A DNA stretch of 64,000 nucleotides from an uncultured Nonlabens sp. (GCF_947495285.1 NZ_CANLXZ010000013.1:29741-93740); one strand, 5' to 3'; shown: positions 389 through 63,613, numbered from the stretch's first letter. Numbers and translations are program-made. The notes: generated by a model not told the origin, from the letters alone.

Positions 389-1432
389 ATGAAAGCACAT
401 TTCCAGAAATACGTTTTAGAATTTAAGCAACCAGCAGGAACATCTCGTGGTATTTTAAAAACCAAAAACACTTGGTTTCTTATCATTGATAATGGTAATA
501 AACAAGGTGTAGGAGAGGTGAATATGTTTGCTGGTCTTTCTATAGACGACAGACCAGAATTTAAAAAGCAACTGCAATGGACTTGTGATCATATTAATTT
601 ATCACCGGTAGAGATGATGGAGGCATTAAAAAAATGGCCTTCTATTTTATTCGGTTATGAAACGGCGATGAGGTCCTTGCAATCTAGCGATCCTTTTACA
701 TTGTTTCCAACTATGTTTACAGAAGGGCAAGATGCGATTTCTATTAACGGACTCGTATGGATGGGAAATCAGGATTTTATGATGCAACAGCTAGAAGAAA
801 AACTAGCTGCAGGTTTTGACTGTATTAAAATGAAGATAGGCGCTATCGATTTTGAGTCAGAAATGAGTCTATTGAAATTGATTCGTTCTCGCTTTCGCGA
901 AAGCGAGATCACCATAAGAGTTGATGCAAATGGAGCTTTTACACCTCAAAATGCATTGGGTAAACTAGAAGAAATTGCAAAGTACGATGTACACAGTATA
1001 GAGCAACCTATTAAACAAGGTCAATGGGATGATATGGCACGGCTGTGTGAACAGACGCCGCTAGATATTGCTCTAGATGAAGAATTAATAGGTCTTTATA
1101 GTATAGAAGAAAAGATAGCCTGTCTAGATGTTATTAAACCGCAATATATTATCTTGAAACCTGCTCTGGTAGGTGGTTTTCAAAGTAGTAGAGAATGGAT
1201 AAATCTCGCTACCGAAAGAAATATAGACTGGTGGATCACAAGCGCACTTGAGTCTAATATAGGTCTTAATGCAATTGCACAATTCACGTACACGCTAGGT
1301 AATAAAATGCCACAAGGTCTAGGTACAGGGTCGCTTTATACTAATAATATAAAGGCACCACTAGAGATTAAAGAGGGACAGTTGTGGTGTAACACATCGG
1401 GCAATTGGGATACTAATAAAATAAAGTTTTAA
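389..1432 (+). CDS. menC: o-succinylbenzoate synthase (enolase superfamily)
   Basis: KMKIG, RVDANG, IEQP and LDEEL enolase-superfamily motifs; close to menE. Confidence 0.9.
   Translation: MKAHFQKYVLEFKQPAGTSRGILKTKNTWFLIIDNGNKQGVGEVNMFAGLSIDDRPEFKKQLQWTCDHINLSPVEMMEALKKWPSILFGYETAMRSLQSSDPFTLFPTMFTEGQDAISINGLVWMGNQDFMMQQLEEKLAAGFDCIKMKIGAIDFESEMSLLKLIRSRFRESEITIRVDANGAFTPQNALGKLEEIAKYDVHSIEQPIKQGQWDDMARLCEQTPLDIALDEELIGLYSIEEKIACLDVIKPQYIILKPALVGGFQSSREWINLATERNIDWWITSALESNIGLNAIAQFTYTLGNKMPQGLGTGSLYTNNIKAPLEIKEGQLWCNTSGNWDTNKIKF
890..905. repeat. 16-bp palindrome CGCTTTCGCGAAAGCG, exact, inside menC (encodes RFRES)
   Basis: Read directly; the stem extends to TCTCGCTTTCGCGAAAGCGAGA (887-908). 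Confidence 0.97.
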
Positions 1433-1435
1433 AAT

Positions 1436-2410
1436 ATGTTTATTAAAAGAGGTGCAAACGGTTTTCATGATACGTGGAAGTGGCTGATAGGTGCCGTGGT
1501 AATATTTTTGGGTTGTCAGTTTTTTGGTGCTATGCCATTCACTATTGCTGTAATTTATGAACAATTTACGCTTCATGGGGTAGATGCATTAAATAATCTA
1601 GATGAGTCTACATTAATGAATACCTTTTCAAAAAATGTTACTTTCTTTTTATTGATGTTCAGTTTTGTGGTAGGTACGCTAGTGTGGTGGTTGTGGATTA
1701 AATATATTCATAAGTTAACCTGGACAGCATCTACTACTTCACGAGATAAATTTGATTGGAATAGAGCTTTTTTTGCTTTTAGTATAGTAGGGCTTGTGTC
1801 TATAGCAAGTACTTTAATAGGGTACTACAGCAATCCTGAGGTTTATATATGGAATTATAACGCGAGTAACTTTGCTATTCTTGCAGTCATTGCTATTGCT
1901 TTAGTTCCTATACAAACTACATGGGAAGAGCTTTTTTTTAGAAGTTATGCTATGCAGGGATTGGGAATTATATCTGGTAATCGGGCAGTTCCTTATATTC
2001 TTACATCAGTCGTTTTTGGAATGATGCATATTTTTAATCCAGAAATTGCTACTATGGGGTATATCGTTATGATTTGGTACGTAGGTACTGGTTTTCTACT
2101 AGGTACTTTCACCTTAATGGACGAAGGTACTGAGCTAGCAATAGGTTTTCATGCAGCAAATAATTTATTTATAGCTTTATTAGTTACTGCAGACTGGACA
2201 GCGTTTCAAACAGATTCTTTATTGATAGATACATCAGACCCAACAGCTACCTGGGAAACCTTTATACCTTTATTTATTTATTATCCTGCCTTAATATTAC
2301 TGTTTGCTAAGAAATATAAATGGAACAATTGGAAAAATAAATTGTTCGGAAAAATAGATGTACCAGCTTTAAAAACTAATTATGATACCAAAGATCCATC
2401 CCACATTTAA
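1436..2410 (+). CDS. CPBP (CAAX protease-like) intramembrane glutamic endopeptidase
   Basis: Multi-TM protein with EELFFRSY, FGMMH and GFHAANN motifs. Confidence 0.88.
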   Translation: MFIKRGANGFHDTWKWLIGAVVIFLGCQFFGAMPFTIAVIYEQFTLHGVDALNNLDESTLMNTFSKNVTFFLLMFSFVVGTLVWWLWIKYIHKLTWTASTTSRDKFDWNRAFFAFSIVGLVSIASTLIGYYSNPEVYIWNYNASNFAILAVIAIALVPIQTTWEELFFRSYAMQGLGIISGNRAVPYILTSVVFGMMHIFNPEIATMGYIVMIWYVGTGFLLGTFTLMDEGTELAIGFHAANNLFIALLVTADWTAFQTDSLLIDTSDPTATWETFIPLFIYYPALILLFAKKYKWNNWKNKLFGKIDVPALKTNYDTKDPSHI

Positions 2411-7401: not shown

Positions 7402-8268
7402 TTACGCTTTCGCGAAAGCGATCATAAGAATAGCAACTATAGCTACTGTAATACCTATGTAATTCTTTGGAATTAGTTTTTCTTTGAATATAAGAATGCC
7501 CAGAATAGAAGCAAAAAGGACCGTAGCTACATTATTAATAGGGTAAACCACGCTGCTTTCCATGCCGTTTTTTAAAGATTTAATTAAAAAGTAAATGGAG
7601 AAATAGTTAGGAATTCCTAGCAGGATACCTGCGATTATAGATTTTAAATTGATAAGGCGTTTTTGTGTCGTCTCGTAAATAAGAATGATAACCCCTATGA
7701 TAAAGGCAGTGGCAAAACACATGGCGCTGAATAGAGATTCTTCTCCTACTGAGACGTGATTAATTTCGGCATATTTAAGTGTGGTGTCTATTATACCGCT
7801 ACCCAAAAATAATAGGACAGGAAGAATAAGTGTTTTTTTATCCAGCTGAAGCCCTTCCTTACTTTTAACTGATGTAAGATAAACAGAAATAAGAGCGAGT
7901 ATTATACCTGCGATTTTCATCCATCCTATAGATTCTTCATAAAGCCATATTCCTGCAATAACAGGAATAACTAGCGACATTTTTCCAGAGACAGCAGCGA
8001 CAGTAAGTCCATTTTTCTGGCTGGCAAGTGCCATGATGTTAAAAATAAAAATAAAAAGCGCGCCTGTAAAAAAGGAGTAGTAGAGCCAGTCTGCTTGTAA
8101 AATACTCTCCACATGAGGTACCTGTCCATAGGATATGAACCCAGTGACGCTAGCAATAATGTAATTAGTAATGATAGCATGTAAGGTGTTTACCTTAAAA
8201 ATTTCAAAGTATTTGAAAATCACATAGAGTAAACTAGATGTGATAACACTTAATAATAACCAGATCAT
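7402..8268 (-). CDS. EamA/DMT family transporter
   Basis: About 10 TM segments in two repeats; 288 aa. Confidence 0.85.
   Translation of the reverse strand: MIWLLLSVITSSLLYVIFKYFEIFKVNTLHAIITNYIIASVTGFISYGQVPHVESILQADWLYYSFFTGALFIFIFNIMALASQKNGLTVAAVSGKMSLVIPVIAGIWLYEESIGWMKIAGIILALISVYLTSVKSKEGLQLDKKTLILPVLLFLGSGIIDTTLKYAEINHVSVGEESLFSAMCFATAFIIGVIILIYETTQKRLINLKSIIAGILLGIPNYFSIYFLIKSLKNGMESSVVYPINNVATVLFASILGILIFKEKLIPKNYIGITVAIVAILMIAFAKA
7405..7420. repeat. 16-bp palindrome, exact, forming the last five codons (AFAKA) of the EamA gene
   Basis: Read directly; abuts the stop codon. Confidence 0.97.
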
Positions 8269-9272
8269 GCGTTAAGATATGTTTTTAAAACATCTTTATT
8301 TAAAGTAACTCTATCCAGGATGGTGTAGTTGCCATTTAATTTGGGCGCTGGTAGTCCATTATAAAATAAAACTTCAGTTCCTATAAACTGCATCGCTTCA
8401 TCCCATAAATTAGACTCGATAAATTGTTCTATGGTACGGGCGCCGCCTTCTATAATTACTGACTGTATGTGGTTGTTGTAGAGTTTTTTAATTATGGTTT
8501 CAGGATTGTTGGAGTCTATAGTGATCGTAGGAGCTGCAGTGTTAAAAACAGCGTTGTTTTTACCTAGATTATTTCTAGAATCTAGGATTATACGTGTAGG
8601 ATTCATGCCTTGCCAGTCCCTGCAAGTTAGTGATGGGTTATCATCTATTACGGTTTTTGCGCCTATAAGAATTGCGTTTTCTCCGGCTCTTAATCGGTGA
8701 GATAATTGTCTAGAATAAGAATTAGTAATCCATACTGGTTTTTGTTCTTCTTTTTGTACGGGCGCTATGAAACCGTCGGCAGTTTGGGCCCATTTTAAAA
8801 TAATATAAGGGCGTTTTTTTCTATGAAAAGTAAAAAAACGTTTGTTGAGAAAATCGCATTCTTTTTCTAGAACGCCCACTGTGACTTCTATACCTTCTTC
8901 TTTTAATATGGCAACACCTTTTCCTGCTACTTTTTCATGTGGATCTAGAGAGCCTATGACTACTTTTTTAAACCCCTTTTTTATGATCATAGAAGCGCAT
9001 GGTGGAGTTTTCCCTGTGTGAGAACAGGGCTCTAGGTTGACGTATAATACCGCTTTTGCAAAAGCGTCTCTACCATAACCATTTTTCTCAGCATCTAGGA
9101 CTGCGTTAACTTCAGCATGCGGTTCACCAGATTTTTTATGCCATCCTTCTCCAAGAATCTCGTCATTTTCAGAAACGATCACACTTCCCACTAGCGGATT
9201 AGGATACGTGGTTCCTAATCCATTTTGTGCTAGTTGTATGCAACGTTTTATGTATTTCTCATTTGTAGTCAT
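8265..9272 (-). CDS. ribD: Riboflavin biosynthesis deaminase/reductase
   Basis: HAEVNA, LEPCSHTGKTPPC zinc motifs and IIEGG. Start moved from the track GTG (9278) to ATG 9272 because 9278 lies within the -7 element TACTTTTG (9278-9285). Confidence 0.95.
   Translation of the reverse strand: MTTNEKYIKRCIQLAQNGLGTTYPNPLVGSVIVSENDEILGEGWHKKSGEPHAEVNAVLDAEKNGYGRDAFAKAVLYVNLEPCSHTGKTPPCASMIIKKGFKKVVIGSLDPHEKVAGKGVAILKEEGIEVTVGVLEKECDFLNKRFFTFHRKKRPYIILKWAQTADGFIAPVQKEEQKPVWITNSYSRQLSHRLRAGENAILIGAKTVIDDNPSLTCRDWQGMNPTRIILDSRNNLGKNNAVFNTAAPTITIDSNNPETIIKKLYNNHIQSVIIEGGARTIEQFIESNLWDEAMQFIGTEVLFYNGLPAPKLNGNYTILDRVTLNKDVLKTYLNA
9051..9066. repeat. Palindrome variant CGCTTTTGCAAAAGCG inside ribD (still AFAKA, still palindromic)
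   Basis: Two symmetric substitutions relative to the consensus; both are synonymous in the ribD frame. Confidence 0.75.
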
Positions 9273-9427
9273 TAACACAAAAGTAAGGCTGAATTAAAAT
9301 CAAAAAGAGAAATCCTTTTAAAATTAGAACATATTATACCGAATTGTGTTTTGAGAAGTAGATGAATAGTCTCTAATATATTCCTAACTCTAGATAATAA
9401 TTGGAAAGGTAACTTTAAATTCGCATT

Positions 9428-10916: not shown

Positions 10917-13010
<2,094 letters not shown>

Positions 13011-13051: not shown

Positions 13052-13067
13052 CGCTTTCGCGAAAGCG
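13052..13067. repeat. 16-bp palindrome, exact, intergenic between ligA and the spondin gene
   Basis: Read directly; the stem extends to AATTCCGC...GCGGGATT. Confidence 0.97.
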
Positions 13068-18481: not shown

Positions 18482-18497
18482 CGCTTTCGCGAAAGCG
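18482..18497. repeat. 16-bp palindrome, exact, intergenic downstream of the LytTR gene
   Basis: Read directly (TTCCGCTTTCGCGAAAGCGCAA). Confidence 0.97.
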
Positions 18498-21691: not shown

Positions 21692-22489
21692 TTATTTTAG
21701 GATATCAAACCTATTATCTCTCTTAAAATTTAACGTGTCTACCTTTTTAAAATAATCAATTAGAGCATTTCTTATTTTATAATCTATTTTAGTCATAGGG
21801 GTATCCTTAAAGAAACTCATGTTGTCGCCACCGTTATATAAATAATCGTTAGTAGCTACGGTATATGTTTTATAGTTGTCTATAGGTTTTTTATTAATGA
21901 GAACCTTGTTGATGGAGTGGTCTTTATTTAATAAAATCTGTAAGCCATCTATAGGGTGTGCACTTTTACGTTCTACCAGGTAATTAATCAATTCATGAAC
22001 CTGTTTACCACTTAATTCTGCAATAACAATCTCGTTATCAAATGGCATTATTTCATATGCGCTACGCATAGTTACTGGGCCCGCGTTAAGACCAGATCGT
22101 ATACCACCGTGATTAAGTAATACCATGTCTAATCTCTTGCCGGTTCTAGAATAATACACAGGTTCTCCTTGTGTTCTAACTATAGCTGCCATCATATTTC
22201 CTATAGGAGTGTTAAGCTTATAGTCGTTCTTGTGCATTGAAGTAGGGTTGTAGCTTATCTGCTCGTTCATTTGTCCGTCTAGAGACTTTTTGAAAGGGGC
22301 AATAAAAGCCTCGATTTCTTCAGTACTTTCTAGAGTTGCGTCTACGGCTGTTTGATTTCCTGAGACTTTTTTAAGCTCATATATTTTCTGGCTGCAAGAA
22401 ACTAGTAAGATGGTGGATAGTAATACCGCTTTCGCGAAAGCGGAATGATTAAATACCACCTTACTGTTTACTAACTTATTTTTTTTCAT
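21692..22489 (-). CDS. 5'-nucleotidase C-terminal (substrate-binding) half, lipoprotein
   Basis: Lipobox LVSC; NHGGIRS, MPFDN and ATNDYL..GGD motifs. Confidence 0.87.
   Translation of the reverse strand: MKKNKLVNSKVVFNHSAFAKAVLLSTILLVSCSQKIYELKKVSGNQTAVDATLESTEEIEAFIAPFKKSLDGQMNEQISYNPTSMHKNDYKLNTPIGNMMAAIVRTQGEPVYYSRTGKRLDMVLLNHGGIRSGLNAGPVTMRSAYEIMPFDNEIVIAELSGKQVHELINYLVERKSAHPIDGLQILLNKDHSINKVLINKKPIDNYKTYTVATNDYLYNGGDNMSFFKDTPMTKIDYKIRNALIDYFKKVDTLNFKRDNRFDILK
22427..22442. repeat. 16-bp palindrome, exact, in the signal-peptide coding region (AFAKA)
   Basis: Read directly. Confidence 0.97.
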
Positions 22490-29918: not shown

Positions 29919-29934
29919 CGCTTTCGCGAAAGCG
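29919..29934. repeat. 16-bp palindrome, exact, intergenic just after the fabI terminator
   Basis: Read directly; arms extend TTTTAT...GATAAAA with a one-base bulge. Confidence 0.97.
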
Positions 29935-34057: not shown

Positions 34058-34076
34058 ATTGACTATTTTTGACAGC

Positions 34077-38981: not shown

Positions 38982-39901
38982 TTAAGATTGTTTCTCATAA
39001 GTAAAACATTAACTCGCTCTACAATTTCTGTATGGCGAGTTTTGTAATGATACCATTTTACAGAGATATCCTTGCGATACCAGGTTAATTGACGTTTTGC
39101 AAATCTACGAGTATTGCGTTTTATTAATCGCACCGCTTCTTCATAACCATGCTCTTTATTAAAGAACCCAAAAAATTCTTTATAACCTACAGTTTGTAAA
39201 GCATTAAGTTCTTGGTGGGCTATAAGTTGGCGAGCTTCTTCTTCAAGTCCTCTCTCTAACATGATGTCCACACGACGATTTATGCGATCATAAAGATCTT
39301 CACGACTGGCCTCGAGTCCTATTTTTATGACTTTAAAATCTCGTTGTTGAGCAGTTCCAGATCTTAAGTCACTCATTTTTTTGCCGCTAGCGCGATATAT
39401 TCCTACGGCTCTAAGTAATCTATGAGCATTGTGAATATCTACCGTGCTGTAATACTCTGGATCTATGTGTTCTAATTCTTTTTGTAACCAGGTAATTCCT
39501 TTAATCTCAAATTCTTCTCTCAAGAAATCTTGAATCTCTATGGAAACATCAGGAAATATATCTAGTCCATGAGTAACTGCCTTTTCATAAAGTGCACTAC
39601 CACCTACCATAACAACGACATCATTTTTCTCAAAAAGAGTTGGTAATAGATCCATTACATCTCTTTCAAAATCTCCTACAGAATAATCATCCAGAATACT
39701 TCTATCCTGAATAAAATAGTGAGTTGCAGCTGCCAGTTCTTCTGGTTCTGGGACAGCAGTTCCTATGGTCATTTCTTTATAAAACTGTCTGGAGTCTGAC
39801 GATATGATGGATGTGTTGTACGCTTTCGCGAAAGCGATACTCAAAGCAGTCTTTCCTATTCCAGTAGGGCCTACGATACATAGTAGAGTCTTGTTATTCA
39901 T
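38978..39901 (-). CDS. miaA: tRNA dimethylallyltransferase
   Basis: GPTGIGKT, DSRQFY, GGSALY and TRRFAKRQLTW motifs. Confidence 0.97.
   Translation of the reverse strand: MNNKTLLCIVGPTGIGKTALSIAFAKAYNTSIISSDSRQFYKEMTIGTAVPEPEELAAATHYFIQDRSILDDYSVGDFERDVMDLLPTLFEKNDVVVMVGGSALYEKAVTHGLDIFPDVSIEIQDFLREEFEIKGITWLQKELEHIDPEYYSTVDIHNAHRLLRAVGIYRASGKKMSDLRSGTAQQRDFKVIKIGLEASREDLYDRINRRVDIMLERGLEEEARQLIAHQELNALQTVGYKEFFGFFNKEHGYEEAVRLIKRNTRRFAKRQLTWYRKDISVKWYHYKTRHTEIVERVNVLLMRNNLN
39821..39836. repeat. 16-bp palindrome, exact, inside miaA (AFAKA, in the helix after the P-loop)
   Basis: Read directly. Confidence 0.97.
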
Positions 39902-43230: not shown

Positions 43231-46056
43231 CTAATACCACCTTCTGGTAAAAAGTTTTACAAAAGTGTTAATGTCTAGAGTAACTATAAAACGTATTTTT
43301 TCGTCATATTTATCTTGTCCCATTTCCCAGCCATTATTACTGTAAACAGGGAAATACAGCTCAAAATAATCTTGCAAAAAATTTAAACGTATTCCAGAAT
43401 CATAGACAAATTTTGCATCGCGATCTCTGTTTTTTACAAACCCCACGTCTCCATAAACATGAATATAATTCCATAAACTGTACGATCCATTTACCGTGGT
43501 AATCCACTGATTTGCAAATGCTGGTTCTAATTGTGATTTAAAACCACCTTCGGCCACGATTAATTGTTGAGAGAATATACCGCTATCCTCAGATCTACCG
43601 TAGTAGTTGTAATCAAATAAATAGTCTGTAGGTCTATCTAGTGCAAAGGAGAAAAAATCGCCGTTAGATGCGCTATTGTTGGATAGAAAAGCACCAGCAA
43701 AAACTCTAAAATCTAGTTGTCTATTATTTTTAAATAACTTTCGCCATCGCAATCTGTATGTTGCTTTAGTAAATTTACTAGAGATTTCTGTTCCTATATT
43801 ATAATTAAATACGCGTTTTAAATTATTATCAGAATGTGAGAAATTTATGCTGAATACGTTGTAATCTGGCTCGTCTACTGGGCTTAATGGGTCTCGATCA
43901 CGGTCTACATAAATATTTCTAAAACTTAAGGACTGGATCTTATTACTACGTAAATCTTCAGGACGGTAACTAAATTGTAAAAAGCCGCTCGCACGTCGGT
44001 ACAATAGATCATCAGCATAAGAAAAGGTATTTGCACTCACTCCATACCTCACACGATACAGTCTTTCTTCTCGATTTTGAACAGGATGTGCATAGCTCAG
44101 ACTAATAGATCCCACCAGCTTGTTAGAGTTAGTCCCATATCCAGGTTTAATGCTATATCGCAATGGTTTAGGTAATAGATTTCCATTGTAAAATCTTGTT
44201 CCTAGAGTAAGACCGTCATAGATGTTAAATTCTATATCGGGCATTAAAAATATTTGAGAACGTTCTGGATCTTCCACATCTTTAAATAAACGGAATTCTA
44301 ACGGACGGTTCAATGAAGGGAATCCCTTTAGGGTCTTGTAATTATCACGTGGATTAAACTCGGTTATGAGTTTTTCATAGTTTATGGCTATTCTGTTAGC
44401 ACGCTTTCGCGAAAGCGAGATCACACTATCACCTCTCACACCTTCTATCCATCTCTTATCTATAATGCTGTTGTTATCTAGTAAATAGACAGGAATAGGA
44501 ATGTTAAGTTGCGACTTATTCTTGATTCTGAATGAAACGGAGTCTTTGGTTTTATGAACGTTTCTTATCGTCCAGTCCAGCTGTTTATGGGTAGTGATGT
44601 AGTCGTCAAAAAACCAGTTGACATCTTTGGGAGCGTCTTGTTGCACTATTTTTCTAAAATCAGAAACGTCTGTGTAAGCGTTATGATTTGCGGTGTAATA
44701 ATCTCTTATAGATTGTTCTAGGCTGCTGTCTTCTAGATAATCGTTTAAGAAATTTAGTCCTATGGCGGCTTTAAAAGGTATTCCTAATTGCTGATTGTAC
44801 TTTACCAGCTGGTCTGCAGGCGTGTTGACAGCCTCGTCCAGATTGCGTCTTGCGCTGTTAAGGTAGAGTAGTGGATAACTCTCGCTAAATTTGAGTTGCG
44901 TGACATTAAAACCTCTCAATCCCCATACATTACTAAGTTTACCACTTATTTTAAGATCTGGATAGTAAAGTTGCTGGTATTGCATCATTAAATACACCAT
45001 GATAGATTGTTGTATCCAGGCTTCTTTTCTAGGATTAACGTGTACACCGTTTTCTACCCATTTGCGTGTTAGTGCTTTGAGCATTTTAATTTCATAAGTA
45101 AAACCGGCAGGAAAAGGATTTATAAAACTAGGTAAAGAACTTAACCCATAAACTGGATTCTCTCGATAATAACGGTCGGATACAAAGACATCTTTTTCTC
45201 GATAATCACCCAGTCTAGTCTGAAGAAAGCTAGCAATTCTATCGTTAAAAATTACTTTCATTTCTAGAGGTACATCGCTGTCATCTATATCTGTGATAAT
45301 GTTAATGCCTGGTACACTGTAGGTTTTAAAAATATCGATGTCGTTGAGCACATGAAGAATAACACCACGATTATGGCTTGCTGTAAATAAATAACTATGA
45401 CGCGTGTCTGGTAACGCCTCTTGTGCAGTGGTAATATTACTTATCGCTCGATGTGTTGCTGGTATGTGTAGAGAGATCGAAAAATCCATGGGTGCGCCAT
45501 AGAAATCATCTAGATCTTTATGAGAATAATAATCCCATGCTCCATCTTTAAACGGTGCAGGGTGCAGATACCAGTGTTTTAGAGTGTATTCTCCTTTAGA
45601 ATTTTTTCCATAGCCGGTAAAATCGTCTTCTGGTATTTTAACCGTATAATTTAAATCTATGTTGCGAGTAGCGCCTGGTGGCAATGGCTCTTTAAAATAA
45701 AGTTTTATAATATCTTGTTGACCATCTAGTCGCTCGATGCGATAATGTTGATCAAAGTTAGAGTCTGTGGTGATAGTTGTTCTACCTCGCTCTTGATCAT
45801 TTGCAAACTGAAATTTGTTTTTAAAATCTTCGGCAAAGCGTGTTGCAAGCGGTGTTTGTGTAGAAGAAAATGCATTTGCCCAATCTAGAAGTATGATGTA
45901 ATCCCAGGCTGCATCGCTATCGTTATAAATTTCTAGATCTTGATTTATAGACAGCAAGTCTTTATCGCTATCTAGATGTGCGATAATGTCTGTTTTGTAC
46001 TGTGCGTGTAGGACACAAGTAAACAAAAGCAAAAGAAGAACTAGCTTTTTAGTCAT
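43231..46056 (-). CDS. M1/gluzincin-like protein lacking HExxH, with a probable C-terminal beta-barrel region
   Basis: Signal peptide and an M1-like N-terminal layout. The Zn-motif position reads KALTRKW...EAWIQQS; the last ~380 aa show amphipathic beta-strand alternation. Confidence 0.6.
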   Translation of the reverse strand: MTKKLVLLLLLFTCVLHAQYKTDIIAHLDSDKDLLSINQDLEIYNDSDAAWDYIILLDWANAFSSTQTPLATRFAEDFKNKFQFANDQERGRTTITTDSNFDQHYRIERLDGQQDIIKLYFKEPLPPGATRNIDLNYTVKIPEDDFTGYGKNSKGEYTLKHWYLHPAPFKDGAWDYYSHKDLDDFYGAPMDFSISLHIPATHRAISNITTAQEALPDTRHSYLFTASHNRGVILHVLNDIDIFKTYSVPGINIITDIDDSDVPLEMKVIFNDRIASFLQTRLGDYREKDVFVSDRYYRENPVYGLSSLPSFINPFPAGFTYEIKMLKALTRKWVENGVHVNPRKEAWIQQSIMVYLMMQYQQLYYPDLKISGKLSNVWGLRGFNVTQLKFSESYPLLYLNSARRNLDEAVNTPADQLVKYNQQLGIPFKAAIGLNFLNDYLEDSSLEQSIRDYYTANHNAYTDVSDFRKIVQQDAPKDVNWFFDDYITTHKQLDWTIRNVHKTKDSVSFRIKNKSQLNIPIPVYLLDNNSIIDKRWIEGVRGDSVISLSRKRANRIAINYEKLITEFNPRDNYKTLKGFPSLNRPLEFRLFKDVEDPERSQIFLMPDIEFNIYDGLTLGTRFYNGNLLPKPLRYSIKPGYGTNSNKLVGSISLSYAHPVQNREERLYRVRYGVSANTFSYADDLLYRRASGFLQFSYRPEDLRSNKIQSLSFRNIYVDRDRDPLSPVDEPDYNVFSINFSHSDNNLKRVFNYNIGTEISSKFTKATYRLRWRKLFKNNRQLDFRVFAGAFLSNNSASNGDFFSFALDRPTDYLFDYNYYGRSEDSGIFSQQLIVAEGGFKSQLEPAFANQWITTVNGSYSLWNYIHVYGDVGFVKNRDRDAKFVYDSGIRLNFLQDYFELYFPVYSNNGWEMGQDKYDEKIRFIVTLDINTFVKLFTRRWY
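44402..44417. repeat. 16-bp palindrome, exact, inside the M1-like gene (LSRKR)
   Basis: Read directly. Confidence 0.97.
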
Positions 46057-47661: not shown

Positions 47662-48737
47662 ATAACAACAACTACGCAGTAATTATGGCTGGCGGTGTTG
47701 GTTCTCGATTCTGGCCAGTAAGTAAGCAATCTTTTCCTAAACAATTTCACGATATGTTAGGAATAGGTAAGTCACTCTTACAGATGACCTTTGATCGATT
47801 AAAGCATCAAATTCCAGCACAGCACATACTAGTATTAACTAACCATGCCTATGTAGACCTAGTAAAGGAGCAATTGCCCGACATGAACTTTGACAACATA
47901 GTTGCAGAGCCTGCTATGCGCAATACCGCTCCATGTATTTTACTGGCTGCTTTAAAGATTCAGAAAATGAACGCGCAGGCCAGTATGATAGTTGCACCTA
48001 GCGATCATTACATTGCCCAAGAGGACATCTTTAACGAAGACCTTAATACTGCATTTGATTTCTGTAAATTACATCCAGACGCGTTAATGACCTTAGGAAT
48101 ACAACCTACGTTTCCTAATACTGGTTATGGATATATTGAATTTAATAAGGAGGAAAGTGAGGTAAAAAAGGTATCTCAATTTAGAGAAAAACCAGATCTT
48201 AAAACGGCTCAAGAATTTATCGCTGCAGGTAATTTTTTATGGAATGCAGGGATTTTTATTTGGAATGTAGATAGTGTCGTTTCCGCTTTCGCGAAAGCGC
48301 AACCACAATTAACCTCTTTATTTAAAAATGGATTATCTGTTTTAAATACCAACAATGAAACACAATGGCTAGAAGAAAATTATCCAAAAGCCGATAATAT
48401 TTCTGTCGATTATGCGATCATGGAAAAAAGTGAAGACGTGTATGTATTACCTGCACGTTTTTCATGGAATGATCTAGGTACATGGGGCTCGCTTTATGAA
48501 AAACTAGATAAAAATGATAAGCAAAGTGCTGTAGTAAATGCGTCTGTGACAGAGATAGATTCTAGTAAAAATATGATAAGAACGGCAGCTGGTAAGAAGG
48601 TAATCGTTCAAGGGCTAGAAAATTACATAGTAGTAGATCAAGACGATGTATTAATGATTATCCCTATGACTGAAGAGCAGGAAATCAAACAAATACGTAA
48701 TAAAGCCATGGAAAAATATGGCAATAATATAGGTTAA
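47658..48737 (+). CDS. manC: Mannose-1-phosphate guanylyltransferase
   Basis: MAGGVGSRFWP..PKQF, EPAMRNTAP, FREKP and WNDLGTW motifs. Confidence 0.93.
   Translation: MNNNNYAVIMAGGVGSRFWPVSKQSFPKQFHDMLGIGKSLLQMTFDRLKHQIPAQHILVLTNHAYVDLVKEQLPDMNFDNIVAEPAMRNTAPCILLAALKIQKMNAQASMIVAPSDHYIAQEDIFNEDLNTAFDFCKLHPDALMTLGIQPTFPNTGYGYIEFNKEESEVKKVSQFREKPDLKTAQEFIAAGNFLWNAGIFIWNVDSVVSAFAKAQPQLTSLFKNGLSVLNTNNETQWLEENYPKADNISVDYAIMEKSEDVYVLPARFSWNDLGTWGSLYEKLDKNDKQSAVVNASVTEIDSSKNMIRTAAGKKVIVQGLENYIVVDQDDVLMIIPMTEEQEIKQIRNKAMEKYGNNIG
48284..48299. repeat. 16-bp palindrome, exact, inside manC (AFAKA)
   Basis: Read directly. Confidence 0.97.
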
Positions 48738-51888: not shown

Positions 51889-51890
51889 TC

Positions 51891-53394: not shown

Positions 53395-53570
53395 AGTTAT
53401 GCGTTTTATTTTAATTAAAGATAATTGATTTGTGATTAAAAATCTAATAATCAATTATTTAAATTAAATGAAGTTTGAATATAAGATTAGATGAAAAACA
53501 GTTTACCTTTCTTTTAAAAATACGCAAATCAGAAATGTCATAATCAGACTTAAGCTTTCTAAAAGTTTTT

Positions 53571-55168: not shown

Positions 55169-56848
55169 ATGAAGAATTTACTTTCTCTGATACTTCTTTT
55201 TGTCTTGTTGACTTCTTGTAGCACGCTTTCGCCAAAGCGAGACTACCATCCATCTACGTCCTCCATGACAGAATCGAGTGCGCCAGAAAAAGCTCCTAAA
55301 CTAGTAGTAGGTATAGTAGTAGATCAAATGAGGTATGATTATTTATCTAGATTTTATGACCGCTATACAGATGGTGGGTTTAAAAGACTTATGAATGAGG
55401 GTTTTAACCTGACTAATAATCATTATAATTATGTACCTACTTATACTGCGCCAGGACATGCGTCTATTTATACAGGTACATCACCTATGAATCATGGAAT
55501 TATAGGTAACAACTGGTACGATAAATTTGAGGGTAAGGTTATTTATAACGCAAGTGATGACCAGGTGAGTGGTGTAGGTTCTTTAAGTAACGACGGTAAA
55601 ATGTCACCACGTAGAATGTTAACCACTACAGTGACAGATCAACTAGAATTGCACACTCAAGGTAAAGCAAAGGTGATAGGAATTTCTGTAAAAGATAGAG
55701 GTGCTATTTTACCAGCAGGGCACGCCGCAGATGCTGCTTACTGGTTTGAAGGTGGTGATAAAGGAAGTTTTATTTCTAGCACATTTTATCTAGAACGATT
55801 ACCTAAATGGGCGGCAGATTTTAACGCCTCTAGAAAAGCAGACGATTATCTTAAAACCTGGAATACCCTTTACCCATTAGAAACCTATACAGCTAGTGGT
55901 ACAGATCTTAATAAATTTGAAAAAGCACCTAAAGGTAAGACTAACGCTGTTTTTCCTTATGATTTAAATTATTTGAGAGAAAAAAATGATAATTACAGCC
56001 TTATCAAAGCGACTCCATATGGTAATAGCATAGTCGCAGATTTTGCTATCGCAGCAATAAAAGCAGAAAATATGGGGCAGGATGAGGTGACTGATTTTCT
56101 TGCGGTGAGTTTTTCTAGCACCGATTATATAGGACATCAATACGGTGTAAACTCGGTAGAGATAGAAGATACCTATTTGAGACTGGATAAAGATTTAGAG
56201 CGTCTTTTCATGACTCTCGATAAAGAAGTAGGTAATGGGAATTATACTATTTTCTTAACCGCAGATCATGGTGCGATTAATAACCCAGTTTACCTCCAGA
56301 CTAGAAGAATAAACGCAGGTTACTTTAATAGATCTGACTTTAAGAATAATCTATATAAAGCTATACAGGATAAGTATGGTGTAAATGATTTAGTTTCTAA
56401 CATTTCTAACGACCAGATATTCTTTAATAAAGCAAACCTGATTAAAAATAATATCAATCCTATCGATCTAGAGAACTTTATAGCAATGACTATAGTAGAT
56501 TATAAACATATCGATAAGGTATTTACTAGAAATGCGTTAGTATCTGGTACTATGCAAGATGGCACAGGAAAGTTGATTCAAAATGGTTTTCATCACAAGC
56601 GTAGTGGTGATGTGATCTATGTTCTAGAACCAGCTGTTATTTCTTACTCTAAAACGGGCTCTACGCACGGTAGTTCTCAAAGTTATGATACTCATGTACC
56701 ATTATTGTTTTATGGTAATGGAATTAATAAAGGATCTAGCAGTAAGCGCACAGAGATCATAGATATAGCACCGACTGTATCGAGTCTTTTAAAAATAGGG
56801 TTTCCTAATGGATCTACTGGTAATCCTATAAGCGATGCTTTAAAATAA
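55169..56848 (+). CDS. pafA: PafA-type alkaline phosphatase, lipoprotein
   Basis: Lipobox LTSC; VDQMRYDYL, TYTAPGH, KDRGAILPAGH, TDYIGH and TADHG motifs. Confidence 0.92.
   Translation: MKNLLSLILLFVLLTSCSTLSPKRDYHPSTSSMTESSAPEKAPKLVVGIVVDQMRYDYLSRFYDRYTDGGFKRLMNEGFNLTNNHYNYVPTYTAPGHASIYTGTSPMNHGIIGNNWYDKFEGKVIYNASDDQVSGVGSLSNDGKMSPRRMLTTTVTDQLELHTQGKAKVIGISVKDRGAILPAGHAADAAYWFEGGDKGSFISSTFYLERLPKWAADFNASRKADDYLKTWNTLYPLETYTASGTDLNKFEKAPKGKTNAVFPYDLNYLREKNDNYSLIKATPYGNSIVADFAIAAIKAENMGQDEVTDFLAVSFSSTDYIGHQYGVNSVEIEDTYLRLDKDLERLFMTLDKEVGNGNYTIFLTADHGAINNPVYLQTRRINAGYFNRSDFKNNLYKAIQDKYGVNDLVSNISNDQIFFNKANLIKNNINPIDLENFIAMTIVDYKHIDKVFTRNALVSGTMQDGTGKLIQNGFHHKRSGDVIYVLEPAVISYSKTGSTHGSSQSYDTHVPLLFYGNGINKGSSSKRTEIIDIAPTVSSLLKIGFPNGSTGNPISDALK
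55224..55239. repeat. Palindrome variant CGCTTTCGCCAAAGCG (1 mismatch) in pafA (LSPKR)
   Basis: Read directly; lies just after the lipobox Cys. Confidence 0.85.
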
Positions 56849-57399: not shown

Positions 57400-58247
57400 A
57401 ACCCTAGTTTAGACTTTATACCGTTCCAGCGGTAATTTCTTATAAAACGACCTTGCTCTTCTGTTACCAGTGGAGTAAGGTTCTTTTTTTGTGCCAGTCG
57501 GTACCCTTTTAAATAATCGGTAATAAGTGAGAATTGCTTTTTATTCCATGCCATTTTTATGGCTGTAATAAAAGTGAGTGTCCTGCCATAATTCATTTTG
57601 TAAAAAGCCTCTCCTTGTAGGTATTTAGATCTAGAATTATATGCCGCTCCAGTAGGTTTTAAATGTTTTACATGCAAACCGGTAATAGTAAAGACTTGCC
57701 ATCCATAAAACCGCGCCAGCATCTCATCGATCGTATCCCAACCTATACTGGCCTTGAGACCACCTATTTGTTGAAAACACTCTGTTCTGTACGCTTTTAA
57801 AGCACCTCTTATGTGATCAGGATTATTTAGACTTTCTACTTGCCATGTTCCACCTTTATCGATAGTACAATGTCCTGCTGTCATTCCTATTGTTTCGCTT
57901 TCGCGAAAGCGAGTCACCACATCTTTTAAATAGTTTTCAGGAAAAATTAAGTCCGAATCGTATTTACAGACTATGTCATAATCTTCTATATCTATTTGAG
58001 ATAACCCATAATTAAAGGCATGAATCACTTTAGAGCCTGGTATATTTTGCGCACTGGAAGAGGTTTTTACCACATGAATAGGTAGCACAGTAGCATAGGA
58101 GCAAGCTATGTCATAAGTAGCGTCTGTAGAGTTATCATCTACCACCACTATTTGTGCTGCCTTATAAGTTTGCTGTGCTAGACTGTCTAAGGTTAATTTA
58201 ATGAATTGTTCTTCATTATGTGCAGGTATGATAATGACTATTTTCAA
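57396..58247 (-). CDS. Glycosyltransferase family 2
   Basis: IIIPAHNEE, VDDNSTD, DSD and GWDTID motifs. Confidence 0.9.
   Translation of the reverse strand: MKIVIIIPAHNEEQFIKLTLDSLAQQTYKAAQIVVVDDNSTDATYDIACSYATVLPIHVVKTSSSAQNIPGSKVIHAFNYGLSQIDIEDYDIVCKYDSDLIFPENYLKDVVTRFRESETIGMTAGHCTIDKGGTWQVESLNNPDHIRGALKAYRTECFQQIGGLKASIGWDTIDEMLARFYGWQVFTITGLHVKHLKPTGAAYNSRSKYLQGEAFYKMNYGRTLTFITAIKMAWNKKQFSLITDYLKGYRLAQKKNLTPLVTEEQGRFIRNYRWNGIKSKLGF
57896..57911. repeat. 16-bp palindrome, exact, inside the GT2 gene (RFRES)
   Basis: Read directly. Confidence 0.97.
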
Positions 58248-58781: not shown

Positions 58782-58939
58782 TGTCGTTTAATTTAAGTTA
58801 CGAAAATAGAGATTTATACTCGTAGAGTAAGATCAGTTTCTTAAAACTTTATGCGGTAGCGATAGTCTTATCGTTAATGAAGGTTAAGCATGACTCGCTA
58901 GGAGTTAATTGCGGTACATCTTTTGTATTTTTCGCCCTT

Positions 58940-61036
58940 ATGAAATGGATCACACTAGTTGCTCTTTTTGGAGCTTATTTTTCTCAATCACAAAACACGC
59001 CTAGTCAGTTAACAACGGTAGATTATAAAAAGGCTGATGTGTCTATACATCTAGATGCAAATTCTAATGAGATAGAAGGTACAGTAGACTATAATCTTGA
59101 AATCTTAAATGATGCGTCATCTATTTTTCTGGATGCAAAAAATCTAGTTTCTTACAACGCCTTATTAGATAATAAGGAAGTGAAAATGATTTATGACGGT
59201 AAGAAACTTGTAGTACAAGCACCTTTTAAGGCAGGAGAGGAGCACGTGCTGCATATCTCTTTTACCAGTTACCCATCAAAGGCTATGTACCATATAGATA
59301 TAGATGATGATGGTTTGTGGGATCAACTATGGACGCAGGGACAAGGTAAATATACCAGCAACTGGTTGCCTAGTATGGATGATATGAATGATAAGATCAT
59401 CTGGAATACGTCTATTACCGCACCTGCTTCTAAGCTTGCAGTTTCTAACGGTGTGCTGTCACAAGTCATTGATGGTAAAGATGTGAAAACATGGAAATAC
59501 ATCATGCAAAAACCTATGTCTAGTTACTTGCTGGCCGTGGTTGTAGGAGATTATGAGGTAAAAAAAGAAAGTAGTTCTTCTGGTTTACCGCTGGAATATT
59601 ACTATTATAAAAATCAAGGAGATAAAGTAGCTTCTACCTATCAACACTCTAAAGAGATTTTTGATTTCTTAGAAGGCGAGATAGGAGTAGCATTTCCATG
59701 GCAAGCTTATAAGCAAATTCCTGTAAAAGACTTTTTATATTCTGGGATGGAAAATACAGGTTTAACCGTTTTTAGCGATGTGTTTTTTACCGATGCGCTG
59801 GGAGCAAATGACCGCAGTTATGTAAACGTAAATGCGCACGAGCTAGCGCATCAATGGTTTGGTAATTTAGTTACCGAGACAGATGCAAAACACCACTGGT
59901 TGCATGAAGGATTTGCTAGTTATTATGCATTGCTAGCCGAAAAGAATCTATACGGTAATTCTCATTTTCAACATCAATTATATGAGTATGCCGAGGCTTT
60001 GAACCAGCAGACTGCTAGAGGGAAAAGTACCGCTTTGTTAGATCCCAAAGCAAACTCGCTTACATTCTATCAACATGGAGCATGGGCTTTACATGCGTTA
60101 AAGGATACGGTTGGAGAGTTCAGCTTTCGCGAAAGCGTAACACGTTACCTCATAAAAAATAAATACAAGAATGTAACTACAAATGATTTTCTAGATATAG
60201 TAGAAGAAGTAAGCAATAAAAATCTAGACGAGTTTAAAGCCACATGGTTAACATCTACTACATTTCCTGCTGCTGCAGCTTTACAAATCTTGAGAAAAGA
60301 ACCTATTATGGAAAACTTTTTACAACTGGCGGCACGACGTATATCCAATTTTGATGAGTCTTATTATTCTTATAAAGAAACGCTAGAAAAGCCTATAGAA
60401 TTAGAACTGGTTAAAGAAATGGTGGCGCAATTAAGTATTCATAATACAAATAAGAAATATGAGTTATTGAGAGAGGCCGCAACACTGGATAATGTAGAGG
60501 TAAATCAATTAATAGTTTTAAGTACGCCTAGTATTAATGTAGAAAATAGAGAGTTAATAAAAAGCATGCTCAACGATGATTCTTACGTAACTAGAGAGTC
60601 TGCCTTATTTCTTTTATGGAATGATGTGAGTGATAAAAGAACCTTTTTAGAAGAAACAAAACAGCAATGGAAAGAAATGAATTATAGTCTAGATATGGCG
60701 TGGATAGTTTTGGCACTCAATTCTAGTGGGTATAGTAACGAAGAGTTACTGCCGTTACTAACTAGATTACAGTCTTATACGGGACTTATTTATAGTACGG
60801 AGACTAGAACAGCAGCGTTTGATTATTTAATAAACCTAGATGCGATGAGTCAGCAAAATTACATGGACCTCATGCAGGCTAGTTTACACCACGTATGGAG
60901 ATTTTATGAAAATGCGCGAGATATTTTAAAAGCTCAATATAAAAGAGAGCATGGTAAATTTCTTATAGATCAGTCTTTTACGCATTTTAATACAGAAAGT
61001 AAGAAACGTTTGAAGAAAATATTAGAGGTAAAATGA
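58940..61036 (+). CDS. M1 family aminopeptidase, exported
   Basis: GMEN and HELAHQW-x-HEGFASY motifs intact; start set at ATG 58940 (signal peptide). Confidence 0.93.
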   Translation: MKWITLVALFGAYFSQSQNTPSQLTTVDYKKADVSIHLDANSNEIEGTVDYNLEILNDASSIFLDAKNLVSYNALLDNKEVKMIYDGKKLVVQAPFKAGEEHVLHISFTSYPSKAMYHIDIDDDGLWDQLWTQGQGKYTSNWLPSMDDMNDKIIWNTSITAPASKLAVSNGVLSQVIDGKDVKTWKYIMQKPMSSYLLAVVVGDYEVKKESSSSGLPLEYYYYKNQGDKVASTYQHSKEIFDFLEGEIGVAFPWQAYKQIPVKDFLYSGMENTGLTVFSDVFFTDALGANDRSYVNVNAHELAHQWFGNLVTETDAKHHWLHEGFASYYALLAEKNLYGNSHFQHQLYEYAEALNQQTARGKSTALLDPKANSLTFYQHGAWALHALKDTVGEFSFRESVTRYLIKNKYKNVTTNDFLDIVEEVSNKNLDEFKATWLTSTTFPAAAALQILRKEPIMENFLQLAARRISNFDESYYSYKETLEKPIELELVKEMVAQLSIHNTNKKYELLREAATLDNVEVNQLIVLSTPSINVENRELIKSMLNDDSYVTRESALFLLWNDVSDKRTFLEETKQQWKEMNYSLDMAWIVLALNSSGYSNEELLPLLTRLQSYTGLIYSTETRTAAFDYLINLDAMSQQNYMDLMQASLHHVWRFYENARDILKAQYKREHGKFLIDQSFTHFNTESKKRLKKILEVK
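60122..60137. repeat. Palindrome variant AGCTTTCGCGAAAGCG (1 mismatch) in the M1 aminopeptidase gene (SFRES)
   Basis: The 14-bp core 60123-60136 is perfect. Confidence 0.9.
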
Positions 61037-61933: not shown

Positions 61934-63484
61934 TTATTTACCACCTAGATGTATGCAGTCTTTTAATTCTTGCATACCATTAAATGGAACGACCGTTTTT
62001 TGATATTTATAAGTATGCTCTAGAGTTTGTGTCATATTGCTATCTCCTATATTCACATCTACATCTCTCATATCAAACTGACATGGATGTTCATAACCAG
62101 CTGCGTGAGTAATTTCTAGCACTTCTTTATTGAATTTCTTAAAATAGCTAGCCAGTCTACCAGCTTTTTCTGGAACGACTATACCGCGTTGCAACCATTT
62201 ATTTTGAGTAGCAATACCAGTAGGACAGGTGTTGTTGTGACATGCTTTTGCTTGTATACAACCTATAGAAATCATTGCTTCACGAGCCACATTAATAACA
62301 TCTGCTCCCATAGAAAATGCCATCGCAGCTTTGGCAGGAAAACCCAATTTTCCAGAAGCAATAAAAACTAAATCTTCCGTCATTTGTCTGTTCTGAAAAA
62401 CCTGATAAAGATCTTTAAAACCATACACCCATGGAAGCGATACATGGTCTGCAAAACTAGGTGGTGCAGCACCAGTGCCACCTTCACCACCATCTACAGT
62501 GATAAAATCAGGACCTTTTCCTGTAGCTTTCATAATATCTGCCAGTTCTTCCCATTGATCTAGTTTACCTATTGCAGCTTTTATACCAGTAGGTAGTCCA
62601 GTTTCTTGAGCTATTTTTTCAACAAAGTCTACAAGGCCTTGTACACCTTTAAAAGCGCTGTGAGTAGGTGGAGAGAGAACATCTTTCCCCATAGGTACGT
62701 TGCGTATCTCACTTATCTCTTGGGTAATTTTAGAACCAGGTAATACGCCACCTTTTCCAGGTTTTGCCCCTTGAGATAGTTTCACCTCTATAGCTCTTAC
62801 TTGTGGATGGTCTTTAACCAGTTGTTTTAATTTTTCCATAGAAAAATTACCCTCGTCATCACGTACACCAAAGTATCCCGTACCGAAATGAAAAACCACA
62901 TCAGCCCCAGTTTTATGATAAGGAGATAATCCGCCTTCACCAGTATTATGGTAAGCATGTACTTCCTTACAGCCAGTGTTTAAAGCCTCAATAGCCTTGG
63001 CACTTAAACTACCATAACTCATCGCGCTCACATTAATCACACTTCTAGGTCTAAAAGGTCTTTTTCTATTTTTTGCAGCTCCCATAACCTTTGCACAAGG
63101 CAAAAATCCAGGATCTTTAGCAGTAACATGATTTTCATCAAGTTTAAAAGGCATCATCGCATTATTGATAAAAATATACTGGTGCGAGTAAATGTCACGA
63201 TCAGTTCCAAACCCTTCATAATTATTTTCATTCTTTGCACTAGCATAAATCCAGCCACGCTCAATTCTATTGAAAGGAAGTTCTTCACGATTATTTGCCA
63301 CAATGTATTGACGCAATTCTGGACCTATACTTTCTAGCCAGTACCTTATATGTCCTACAACAGGGAAATTCCTGAGTATTATATGTTTCTTATTAAAAAT
63401 ATCAAAAAGTGCAACTATAATTATAAAAGCGATGAGGTACCAGTACCATGCTATGTTTGCAATAAAATCCCAAATTTGTTCCAT
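61934..63484 (-). CDS. FMN-binding glutamate synthase family protein
   Basis: SAMSYGSLS, NTGEGG, KLSQGAKPGKGG, DGGEGGTGAAP and C-x5-C-x4-C motifs. Confidence 0.93.
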   Translation of the reverse strand: MEQIWDFIANIAWYWYLIAFIIIVALFDIFNKKHIILRNFPVVGHIRYWLESIGPELRQYIVANNREELPFNRIERGWIYASAKNENNYEGFGTDRDIYSHQYIFINNAMMPFKLDENHVTAKDPGFLPCAKVMGAAKNRKRPFRPRSVINVSAMSYGSLSAKAIEALNTGCKEVHAYHNTGEGGLSPYHKTGADVVFHFGTGYFGVRDDEGNFSMEKLKQLVKDHPQVRAIEVKLSQGAKPGKGGVLPGSKITQEISEIRNVPMGKDVLSPPTHSAFKGVQGLVDFVEKIAQETGLPTGIKAAIGKLDQWEELADIMKATGKGPDFITVDGGEGGTGAAPPSFADHVSLPWVYGFKDLYQVFQNRQMTEDLVFIASGKLGFPAKAAMAFSMGADVINVAREAMISIGCIQAKACHNNTCPTGIATQNKWLQRGIVVPEKAGRLASYFKKFNKEVLEITHAAGYEHPCQFDMRDVDVNIGDSNMTQTLEHTYKYQKTVVPFNGMQELKDCIHLGGK

Positions 63485-63597
63485 AAAAAATAATTAAGAT
63501 CTAAAAATACAATAGTTGTCATATAAGATCAGATATAACTGCAATGAATTTATACTTTAAAAAATTTTAATGTTGAAAAAACGCTAGATTTTTATTC

Positions 63598-63613
63598 CGC
63601 TTTCGCAGAAGTG
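63598..63613. repeat. Degenerate palindrome copy CGCTTTCGCAGAAGTG (3 mismatches), intergenic
   Basis: Retains the TTCCGCTTTCGC left arm seen in other intergenic copies. Confidence 0.55.

Follow-up and report, generated by a model that had tools for sequence, protein, structure and literature searches.

Why does one 16-bp palindrome recur, in all reading frames, through a 64,000-nucleotide stretch of the genome of an uncultured Nonlabens sp. (GCF_947495285.1, NZ_CANLXZ010000013.1:29741-93740)? The stretch, called the window from here on, is C13:29741-93740 of a 3.2-Mb assembly (34.6% GC); the word under study is the 16-mer CGCTTTCGCGAAAGCG, with GCTTTCGCGAAAGC as its 14-mer core. A sequence-only reading of the window had listed 12 exact copies, starting at 890, 7405, 13052, 18482, 22427, 26180, 29919, 34236, 39821, 44402, 48284 and 57896, and had taken them for an actively maintained cis-element. 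All 12 are reproduced here, whereas none is expected from 100 dinucleotide-preserving shuffles, as are the four near copies it had listed at 9051 (two mismatches), 55224 (one), 60122 (one) and 63598 (three), for a total of 16 hits with up to three mismatches against 0.09 expected. We show that the 16-mer forms the core of a chromosomal cis-element with two-fold symmetry and a span of ~130 bp, that purifying selection keeps this element at fixed and evenly spaced positions, that it is not a mobile repeat, and that it is a clade-wide signal of Nonlabens and two sister genera.

Copy number, spacing and flank architecture

The palindrome extends far beyond the window: all large contigs of the genome carry it, with totals of 498 for the exact 16-mer and 581 for the 14-mer core. 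No other word of at least 10 nt is as frequent in this genome as the core, and TTCGCGAA falls inside the motif in 598 of its 600 occurrences. The two doubts that the sequence-only reading had left standing, a background artefact and confinement to this region, are thereby removed (12 copies versus 0 in the shuffles, and 581 cores on all large contigs), and the count across the genome and the Flavobacteriaceae for which it had called finds the word genome-wide here and abundant in two other genera. Variants with one interior mismatch are rare (55, versus 581 perfect copies). Decay of the core consists mostly of C>T and G>A changes at its central CpGs, and the commonest decay form is the symmetric double transition CGCTTTTGCAAAAGCG, with 10 copies genome-wide.

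The copies are over-dispersed: the mean gap in the genome is 5198 bp with a coefficient of variation of 0.52, and 25 gaps are shorter than 2 kb where 168 are expected under a Poisson distribution, a deficit that is repeated in 400 kb of each of the two sister genera (represented by genomes G296 and G316). Open reading frames (ORFs) of at least 360 nt hold 335 of 578 copies (58%), compared with 85% of the genome being coding, and non-coding DNA is favoured ~2.8-fold per base; within genes, the frame that reads AFAKA is used twice as often as each other frame. Intergenic copies are distributed in proportion to the base pairs available and favour neither convergent gaps nor terminators, although many lie directly after a terminator T-run. 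Contigs that lack the motif are low in GC (30-31%) and probably foreign, and the restriction-modification (R-M) island of the window stands at 29%; contig ends, checked as possible assembly breakpoints, show no enrichment of the motif. One of only 7 pairs in the genome less than 1 kb apart consists of the intergenic copies at C9:13818 and C9:14469, which lie 651 bp from each other upstream of recA and are both ~20 nt past a terminator hairpin and T-run.

The element extends well past 16 bp. Over the ~30 nt 5' of the core, each strand is short of C (6% versus 17%) and of A and has an excess of T and G; the composition is mirrored on the 3' side, with G at 5-7% and C at 23% over ~30 nt. Intergenic copies have T at -4 (90%), -7 (60%), -10 (78%) and -13 (61%), with A mirrored on the opposite side, and copies in all three reading frames show the same pattern; because intergenic copies and all three frames agree, a codon artefact was rejected as the cause of the bias. 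Words such as TTGTTG, TGGTTG and GATGGAT are enriched 5- to 15-fold in these flanks. T-rich blocks at 4-14, 25-32 and 46-50 nt alternate with A-rich blocks at 17-21, 35-39 and 54-57 nt, GC content in the arms oscillates with a period of ~9.75 bp (power 0.44, where 60 random site sets reach at most 0.089), and the T/A wave persists in copies at least 130 nt deep in genes. Measured from the dyad, the inner zone extends ~21 bp and the arms ~64 bp. No complementarity between positions -k and +k was found for k = 1-20, the left and right flanks being statistically independent, and a longer selected hairpin was therefore rejected. The C-poor, GT-rich 5' flank also surrounds non-orthologous sites in 400 kb of each sister genus. 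The 16-bp motif of the sequence-only reading thus holds as a core but falls short in extent, the ~130 bp of symmetric flanks and an embedded GCGAAAGC mini-hairpin having been overlooked.

Every core copy has this mini-hairpin word, d(GCGAAAGC), on both strands, and of its 637 occurrences in the genome 581 belong to the motif. It is the "extraordinarily stable mini-hairpin" of Hirao and co-workers, which has a Tm of 76.5 C, is not denatured in 7 M urea, resists 3'-exonuclease, binds single-stranded DNA-binding protein (SSB) poorly, and was found at the primase-dependent origin of phage G4 (PMC13037366). Through GCGAAAGC the motif falls by sequence into the mini-hairpin class GCGNNAGC, and GCAAAAGC, the commonest decay form here, is listed as not forming the mini-hairpin structure (PMC13037366). 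The flank consensus next to it is G-R-R-A, with a purine at 77-86% of positions, and on sequence grounds its pairing with the invariant core TTT can give a 6-bp stem capped by GAAA. The exact 8-mer described by Hirao and co-workers is thus present here, but its earlier occurrences were isolated ones at phage and plasmid origins and promoters, and it has never been described as a genome-wide lattice or as a back-to-back palindrome.

Selection on the DNA word and its distribution

Four sites near miaA are orthologous in 5-9 Nonlabens species, among which MiaA identity falls to 55%. They are the copies at 34236..34251 in a GT2 glycosyltransferase gene (34059-35078, + strand; read as RFRES, orthologous site in 8 species), at 39821..39836 in miaA itself (38978-39901, - strand; AFAKA, 9 species), at 44402..44417 in a 941-aa gene without a Pfam match (43231-46056, - strand; LSRKR, 7 species), and at 48284..48299 in an NTP-transferase gene (47658-48737, + strand; AFAKA, 5 species). 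Over all species pairs the identity of the core is 1.000, compared with 0.715 for the +-30-nt flanks; at the flank rate, the probability that the 14-mer is identical in a given pair is 0.009, and even the synonymous positions within the core are invariant at orthologous sites. In MiaA, the stretch from the P-loop to the DSRQ motif is equally long in Nonlabens and in 35 outgroups, and where the outgroups read I-x-L-A-K/Q-x-F/Y, Nonlabens reads IAFAKAY; creation of this site took at least 4 substitutions, including L>F. Because the length equals that of the 35 outgroups, copies were made by substitution and not by insertion. The MiaA site is absent from G296 and G316, which indicates that positions turn over on the deepest timescale.

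One Nonlabens metagenome-assembled genome (MAG), L004 (the same as G014/G041), separates the DNA word from the peptide. It keeps AFAKA but spells it GCT TTT GCA AAA GCG, and because the word was lost there by synonymous changes while the peptide was kept, the constraint lies on the DNA rather than on the peptide. All four orthologous sites of this 20-kb region have decayed in L004 by 1-3 changes, mostly CpG transitions, and its flank codons are drifting back to T-ending forms. The genome still has 312 copies, the minimum of the genus, and we therefore rejected it as a natural knockout and claim regional decay alone, which could reflect relaxed constraint in the region, recombination with a relative lacking the motif, or chimerism of the MAG.

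The flanks of the copies are unique, except for ~6 copies that lie in another repeat near group II introns; the bulk of the copies therefore did not spread by copying, and duplicative spread was rejected as their source. Together with the over-dispersion of the copies, the invariance of the core and the fixed synonymous sites, the presence of the word throughout one clade and its absence elsewhere bear out the proposal of an actively maintained cis-element. In the exceptional repeat, the palindromes at C27:12065 and 17568 have flanks identical to those of copies on C12, C62, C81 and C94, which makes them part of a multi-copy element; group II intron RNA domains lie at C27:9567-9644, 10111-10222 and 13718-13795 (L179), in at least 2 copies.

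A MiaA search put the genome within Nonlabens, with N. xylanidelens nearest at 90% amino acid identity, and all 24 Nonlabens congeners carry 312-858 copies of the word. Among ~300 Flavobacteriaceae genera, represented by one genome each, only G296 (409 copies) and G316 (797) are rich and the rest have 0-16, while 16 other families of the order have none. A maximum-likelihood tree of RpoC places G296 and G316 as sisters (support 100/98) and separates them together with Nonlabens from 17 other genera (support 82/69), a topology that is compatible with a single origin of the motif. We found no description in the literature of this sequence or of any iterated palindrome in Flavobacteria; the frame-independent flank architecture and the identity of the embedded mini-hairpin are added here.

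The few copies found in other genera lie in one common heavy-metal-resistance island, which is shared by at least five of them (G149, G163, G325, G186 and G311; L123-L132) at 78-95% nucleotide identity and is also present in the genome under study at C21:12373-13306. The island encodes RND efflux, an outer-membrane factor, P-type ATPases, a multicopper oxidase and an AraC regulator, and its palindromes have a lattice-like spacing, with one conserved pair separated by 933 bp, which makes an origin in the motif-bearing clade probable. Because the island retains copies in five other genera, the word persists on exported DNA. Viruses carry the word as well: ~30 viral contigs in IMG/VR contain it, several with 3-6 copies per 24-40 kb (1 per 6-10 kb), one of the word-bearing contigs encodes a baseplate hub and a phage thymidylate synthase, and the flank bias of viral copies is weaker than that of the host. 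Bobay et al. 2013 reportedly found that Chi-using phages likewise carry the host word.

Possible functions of the element

What could hold such a word in place? The reading we tentatively favour, while granting that it may well be wrong, is that the element is a selected, strand-symmetric "self-DNA" signal for single-strand DNA processing, of the class to which HIP1, Chi and uptake sequences belong. Such a signal would act when either strand turns single-stranded in recombinational repair or DNA exchange: the core on each strand would supply the d(GCGAAAGC) mini-hairpin, resistant to 3'-exonuclease and excluding SSB; the G-R-R-A flank would lengthen the hairpin stem by way of the core TTT; and the ~30-nt 5' tract, so nearly free of C that it should not fold on itself, would with its GT-richness and its T at every third base suit the preference of a RecA-type recombinase. 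Degradation in the 3'->5' direction would be halted by the hairpin, so that a protected 3' end remained next to a loading pad, and, the site being palindromic, the outcome would not depend on the side of approach. The blocks of A/T, which have a phase of ~10 bp and extend to ~60 nt, suggest that a dimeric protein of some kind may also bend or wrap the duplex form. It is the hairpin, the C-free GT tract, the mirror symmetry, the absence from imports and the presence on phages that point us to single-strand processing. The Chi sites of RecBCD/AddAB resemble the motif in occurring ~1 per 5 kb, in being enriched in the core genome, scarce in recent imports and present on some phages, and in having GT-rich surroundings on the side of the future 3' tail. 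A more specific version, which we consider improbable, is a protein-independent, structure-encoded, bidirectional "Chi" every 4-5 kb, at which the hairpin itself would stop 3'->5' degradation and keep SSB off while the GT tract 5' of it would nucleate the recombinase; broken or imported DNA of the clade would then be trimmed to the next lattice point and passed to recombination, and foreign DNA without the word would be degraded.

Several observations weigh against a role in single-strand processing. Chi sites are asymmetric, strand-oriented words of 5-8 nt, which are oriented with replication and read as single-stranded DNA inside the enzyme, unlike this perfect 14-16-bp palindrome on an even lattice. 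An invariant duplex palindrome of 28-32 bits is more typical of base-specific reading of double-stranded DNA (dsDNA) by a homodimer, the ~10-bp phasing of the arms points to duplex wrapping rather than to single-strand processing, and half-site contacts with a protein would account for the G-R-R-A purines just as well. The mini-hairpin is not predicted at all by nearest-neighbour folding (0 kcal/mol), and its relevance is a lead taken from published oligonucleotide chemistry rather than from data on cells. That RecA-type recombinases prefer GT-rich, TGG-type repeats is general background, which limits the weight the GT tract can bear. Finally, no reader or nuclease was found among the candidates tested. 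A UvrD/AddA-like helicase of 1051 aa is encoded on contig C8.

The rival we take most seriously, a genuine possibility if on balance an unlikely one, is a duplex architecture or topology site, at which a dimeric protein would read the dsDNA palindrome and wrap ~130 bp; the protein might be a nucleoid protein peculiar to the clade, or else DNA gyrase, for which the copies would be built-in strong sites, and at intervals of 4-5 kb the chromosome would be anchored or relieved of supercoils. The perfect dyad with its 4-bp CGCG centre, the inner zone of ~21 bp and arms reaching ~64 bp from the dyad, and the ~9.75-bp wave in the arms, with 5 times the random maximum of power and present also deep in coding sequences, would all follow, and the even spacing and exclusion distance suit domain organisation. 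The geometry agrees with that of the E. coli gyrase motif, which spans 130 bp with symmetry about the 4-bp stagger, a centre at -16..+19 and periodic arms to +-63/66 (PMC6379681); like that motif and strong gyrase sites (SGS) such as those of Mu and the repetitive extragenic palindrome (REP)/bacterial interspersed mosaic element BIME-2, the element has an extent of 130 bp, 4-bp-centred symmetry, a central zone of ~36-40 bp and two arms with a helical GC/AT period. Gyrase, however, reads DNA indirectly, and its motif is highly degenerate with a period of 10.75 bp, whereas the core here is an invariant 28-bit word that would not be expected of it and the period is ~9.75 bp (at poor resolution). 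Of the three symmetric type IIA cleavage determinants, -4G/+8C, -2A/+6T and -1T/+5A, only the last fits (PMC10117906), if CGCG is taken as the 4-bp stagger and with determinants from E. coli, and such determinants are reported to differ between species (PMC12324340). GyrA (841 aa) and GyrB (645 aa) have ordinary lengths, and unusual gyrase subunits were rejected on that ground. A second ParB/Noc was rejected as a reader too, there being one ParB_N gene per genome and no second paralogue; canonical parS is present twice on C16, and the half-sites TTTC/GAAA of the motif are 2 bp apart, versus 4 bp in the ParB/Noc site. Wadjet JetABCD, sporadic in occurrence (2 of 21 related genomes), was likewise rejected. 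A topology site would also leave the C-avoiding 5' flanks, their 3-nt phasing and the carriage of the word by phages unexplained.

A true DNA uptake sequence, for which a surface receptor prefers the word and biased uptake with recombination spreads and spaces the copies, seems to us unlikely. Models of uptake drive by Maughan, Wilson and Redfield 2010 reportedly predict clade-specific, evenly spaced words that occur in coding DNA in all frames, as found here. The DNA uptake sequences (DUS) of Neisseriaceae and uptake signal sequences (USS) of Pasteurellaceae share with the motif that they are clade-specific, coding, spaced more evenly than chance, mark resident DNA and persist on exported DNA, and the phased A/T tracts beside the core recall the USS of Haemophilus. 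For HIP1, a role as uptake signal is now argued (PMC13756078), and natural competence with a preference for own DNA occurs in some Flavobacteriales, namely Riemerella (PMC7965970). ComEC (PF03772) is present but non-discriminating, since it occurs in 21 of 21 genomes, including those of 12 of 12 motif-free genera. The usual pilus machine is missing: PilB/PilT/GspE-type ATPases (PF00437) had no match in this genome (G000) or in G296 and G316, so that a type IV pilus or type II secretion ATPase was rejected as the driver and the pilus-dependent form of uptake, one of the options raised by the sequence-only reading, is disfavoured. The motif is moreover ~5 times sparser than DUS/USS and, unlike both, a perfect palindrome, and its 55 interior single-mismatch variants against 581 perfect copies differ from drive equilibria, which give many variants. 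Still less probable is a signal at the level of RNA, in which a hairpin capped by C(GAAA)G and a C-rich, G-poor tract of ~30 nt form a Rho utilization (rut)-like loading site that halts untranslated or antisense transcription. The 3' flank of each strand has that composition, the RNA hairpin UUUCGC-GAAA-GCGAAA is predicted at -6.3 kcal/mol, and a palindrome yields identical RNA both ways; but the stem is invariant and free of compensatory changes, unlike RNA structures in evolution, no RNA family in Rfam matches, convergent gaps are not preferred, and phased arms of ~60 nt on both sides together with a lattice are hard to derive from transcription.

Biased repair, once proposed for HIP1, would make the word a functionless by-product, with a methyltransferase and very-short-patch-type repair, or a sequence-specific nickase, converting near-matches; we give this little credence. 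The predominance of C>T and G>A decay at central CpGs agrees with it, and the flank bias (5' C>T, A>G) is as expected from deamination of exposed single strands. Yet no C5 methyltransferase (PF00145) was found in the five motif-rich genomes G013, G014, G044, G296 and G316, on which ground we also rejected a conserved enzyme of this kind as reader on the HIP1 model and disfavour the HIP1-type modification site that the sequence-only reading had allowed for. Drive of this sort gives neither fixed orthologous positions and an exclusion distance nor position-specific 3-nt and ~10-nt periodic flanks, and the MiaA site took at least 4 substitutions, one of them amino-acid-changing. A mobile miniature repeat spreading by copying, of the kind of REP and its associated RAYT transposase or of a miniature inverted-repeat transposable element, is scarcely credible and is refuted for the bulk of the copies. 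The ~600 palindromic copies resemble E. coli REPs in number, and RAYT-like Y1 genes occur in motif-bearing genomes only (6 of 10, versus 0 of 12 motif-free genomes; 22 tested). REPs, however, are extragenic, imperfect and spread by copying, while here 58% of copies are coding (335 of 578 in ORFs), exact and made in place, with codons replaced rather than inserted into and flanks unique except in ~6 copies. Four of 10 motif-rich genomes (G003, G013, G014 and G316) lack RAYT-like genes; where present, the genes are often pseudogenes, and they are flanked not by the motif but by another inverted repeat, CCCCTGCTGGCGCG..., for which reasons a RAYT/Y1 transposase was rejected as the driver.

The closest known system is HIP1 (GCGATCGC) of cyanobacteria, which has gone unexplained for 30 years. 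Like the motif described here, it is a hyper-abundant exact palindrome that occurs within and between genes across a clade, and both are far above compositional expectation and conserved at sites across species beyond neutral rates. HIP1 has orthologous sites conserved by selection, a quasi-periodic distribution and a function long unknown (PMC5861425, PMC4390886, PMC13756078), and it has been reported to act in Chi-like and uptake-like ways (bioRxiv 10.1101/2024.09.10.611283). It differs in being an 8-bp word of another phylum, whereas the core here is 14-16 bp at a density 10-20 times lower, with a strict short-range exclusion lattice and large symmetric flanks that HIP1 lacks; HIP1 is also read by the orphan methylases DmtA and DmtC, while no conserved C5 methyltransferase is present here. 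Selection on raw DNA across a whole chromosome is known from few cases, genome-wide "self" words (Chi, DUS/USS, HIP1) among them, and this motif adds a second, independent and far more information-rich example (core 28-32 bits) beside HIP1, from a different phylum. Its strict spacing and ~130-bp symmetric architecture constrain the mechanism, and a chemically characterised mini-hairpin makes the element open to direct bench tests. The imposition of AFAKA, RFRES and LSRKR on hundreds of proteins offers a measure of DNA-level selection overriding protein-level selection. Finally, the word marks clade-derived DNA and has traced a metal-resistance island through five genera, which makes it a practical marker of horizontal transfer.

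Copies in the window and neighbouring features

Long ORFs hold 12 of the 16 window copies, which are read as AFAKA (six), RFRES/SFRES (four) or LSRKR/LSPKR (two), in the frames that the sequence-only reading had given; its housekeeping hosts coaBC, miaA, ribD and menC also agree with Pfam and alignment, the MenC-like protein being a member of the enolase superfamily. Pfam identifies RibD, CoaBC and this enolase-superfamily protein as hosts, along with an EamA transporter, a 5'-nucleotidase, two GT2 glycosyltransferases, an NTP-transferase and an M1 peptidase, and the MiaA-like P-loop host was identified by alignment. Besides the four orthologous sites described above, exact copies within genes lie at 890..905 in the enolase-superfamily (MenC-like) gene (389-1432, + strand; RFRES), at 7405..7420 in the 3' end of the EamA transporter gene (7402-8268, - strand; AFAKA, then the stop), directly past the terminator-like hairpin of a convergent gene, at 22427..22442 near the 5' end of the 5'-nucleotidase-like gene (21692-22489, - strand; AFAKA), at 26180..26195 in coaBC (25170-26378, + strand; AFAKA), and at 57896..57911 in the second GT2 glycosyltransferase gene (57396-58247, - strand; RFRES). 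The intergenic exact copies are those at 13052..13067, between the convergent ORFs 10953-13010 (+ strand) and 13169-14533 (- strand), at 18482..18497, downstream of the ORF 17267-18409 (+ strand), and at 29919..29934, ~20 nt past a terminator hairpin and T-run. Among the near copies, that at 9051..9066 in ribD (8265-9278, - strand) is the symmetric double transition CGCTTTTGCAAAAGCG, and that at 55224..55239, CGCTTTCGCCAAAGCG, has one mismatch and lies near the 5' end of the ORF 55169-56848 (+ strand; LSPKR). The copy at 60122..60137, AGCTTTCGCGAAAGCG, retains the exact 14-mer core within the M1 peptidase gene (58877-61036, + strand; SFRES), and the degenerate copy at 63598..63613, with 3 mismatches, is intergenic between divergent ORFs.

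The longest gap between copies in the window contains an R-M-like island at 50364-53454, which has 29% GC and no palindrome and contains a C5 methyltransferase fragment together with HNH and HpaII-like genes. In the genome at large, TCGCGA is not avoided outside the motif, while TTCGAA occurs 92 times where ~1100 are expected from base composition, a scarcity that suggests past or present restriction at that site.

RAYT-like Y1 genes lie at C36:236-796, C36:1697-2257 and C3:135721-136290, with fragments on C33, C121, C12 and C32. They encode 186-189 aa with the HUH motif SHVHL and YIHNNP, and their flanks carry the inverted GC-rich repeat CCCCTGCTGGCGCGAG.../...CTTGCGCCAGCAGGGG, which marks a separate REP/RAYT-type system; among 22 genomes this system is restricted to the motif-bearing clade, and many of its copies are pseudogenes. 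Two tandem, near-identical IS200-type TnpA genes of 138 aa occupy C6:112353-113243 (Y1_Tnp, E ~4e-29). A complete Wadjet system lies at C10:6662-13227 (L220:3662-10227), comprising JetA/DUF3375, JetB/DUF4194, the SMC-like JetC and JetD, with a DUF2779 protein beside it and a superfamily 1 (SF1) helicase next. The commonest 24-mers of the genome belong to a heptamer tandem repeat, (ATGAGCG)n, with ~17 overlapping hits.

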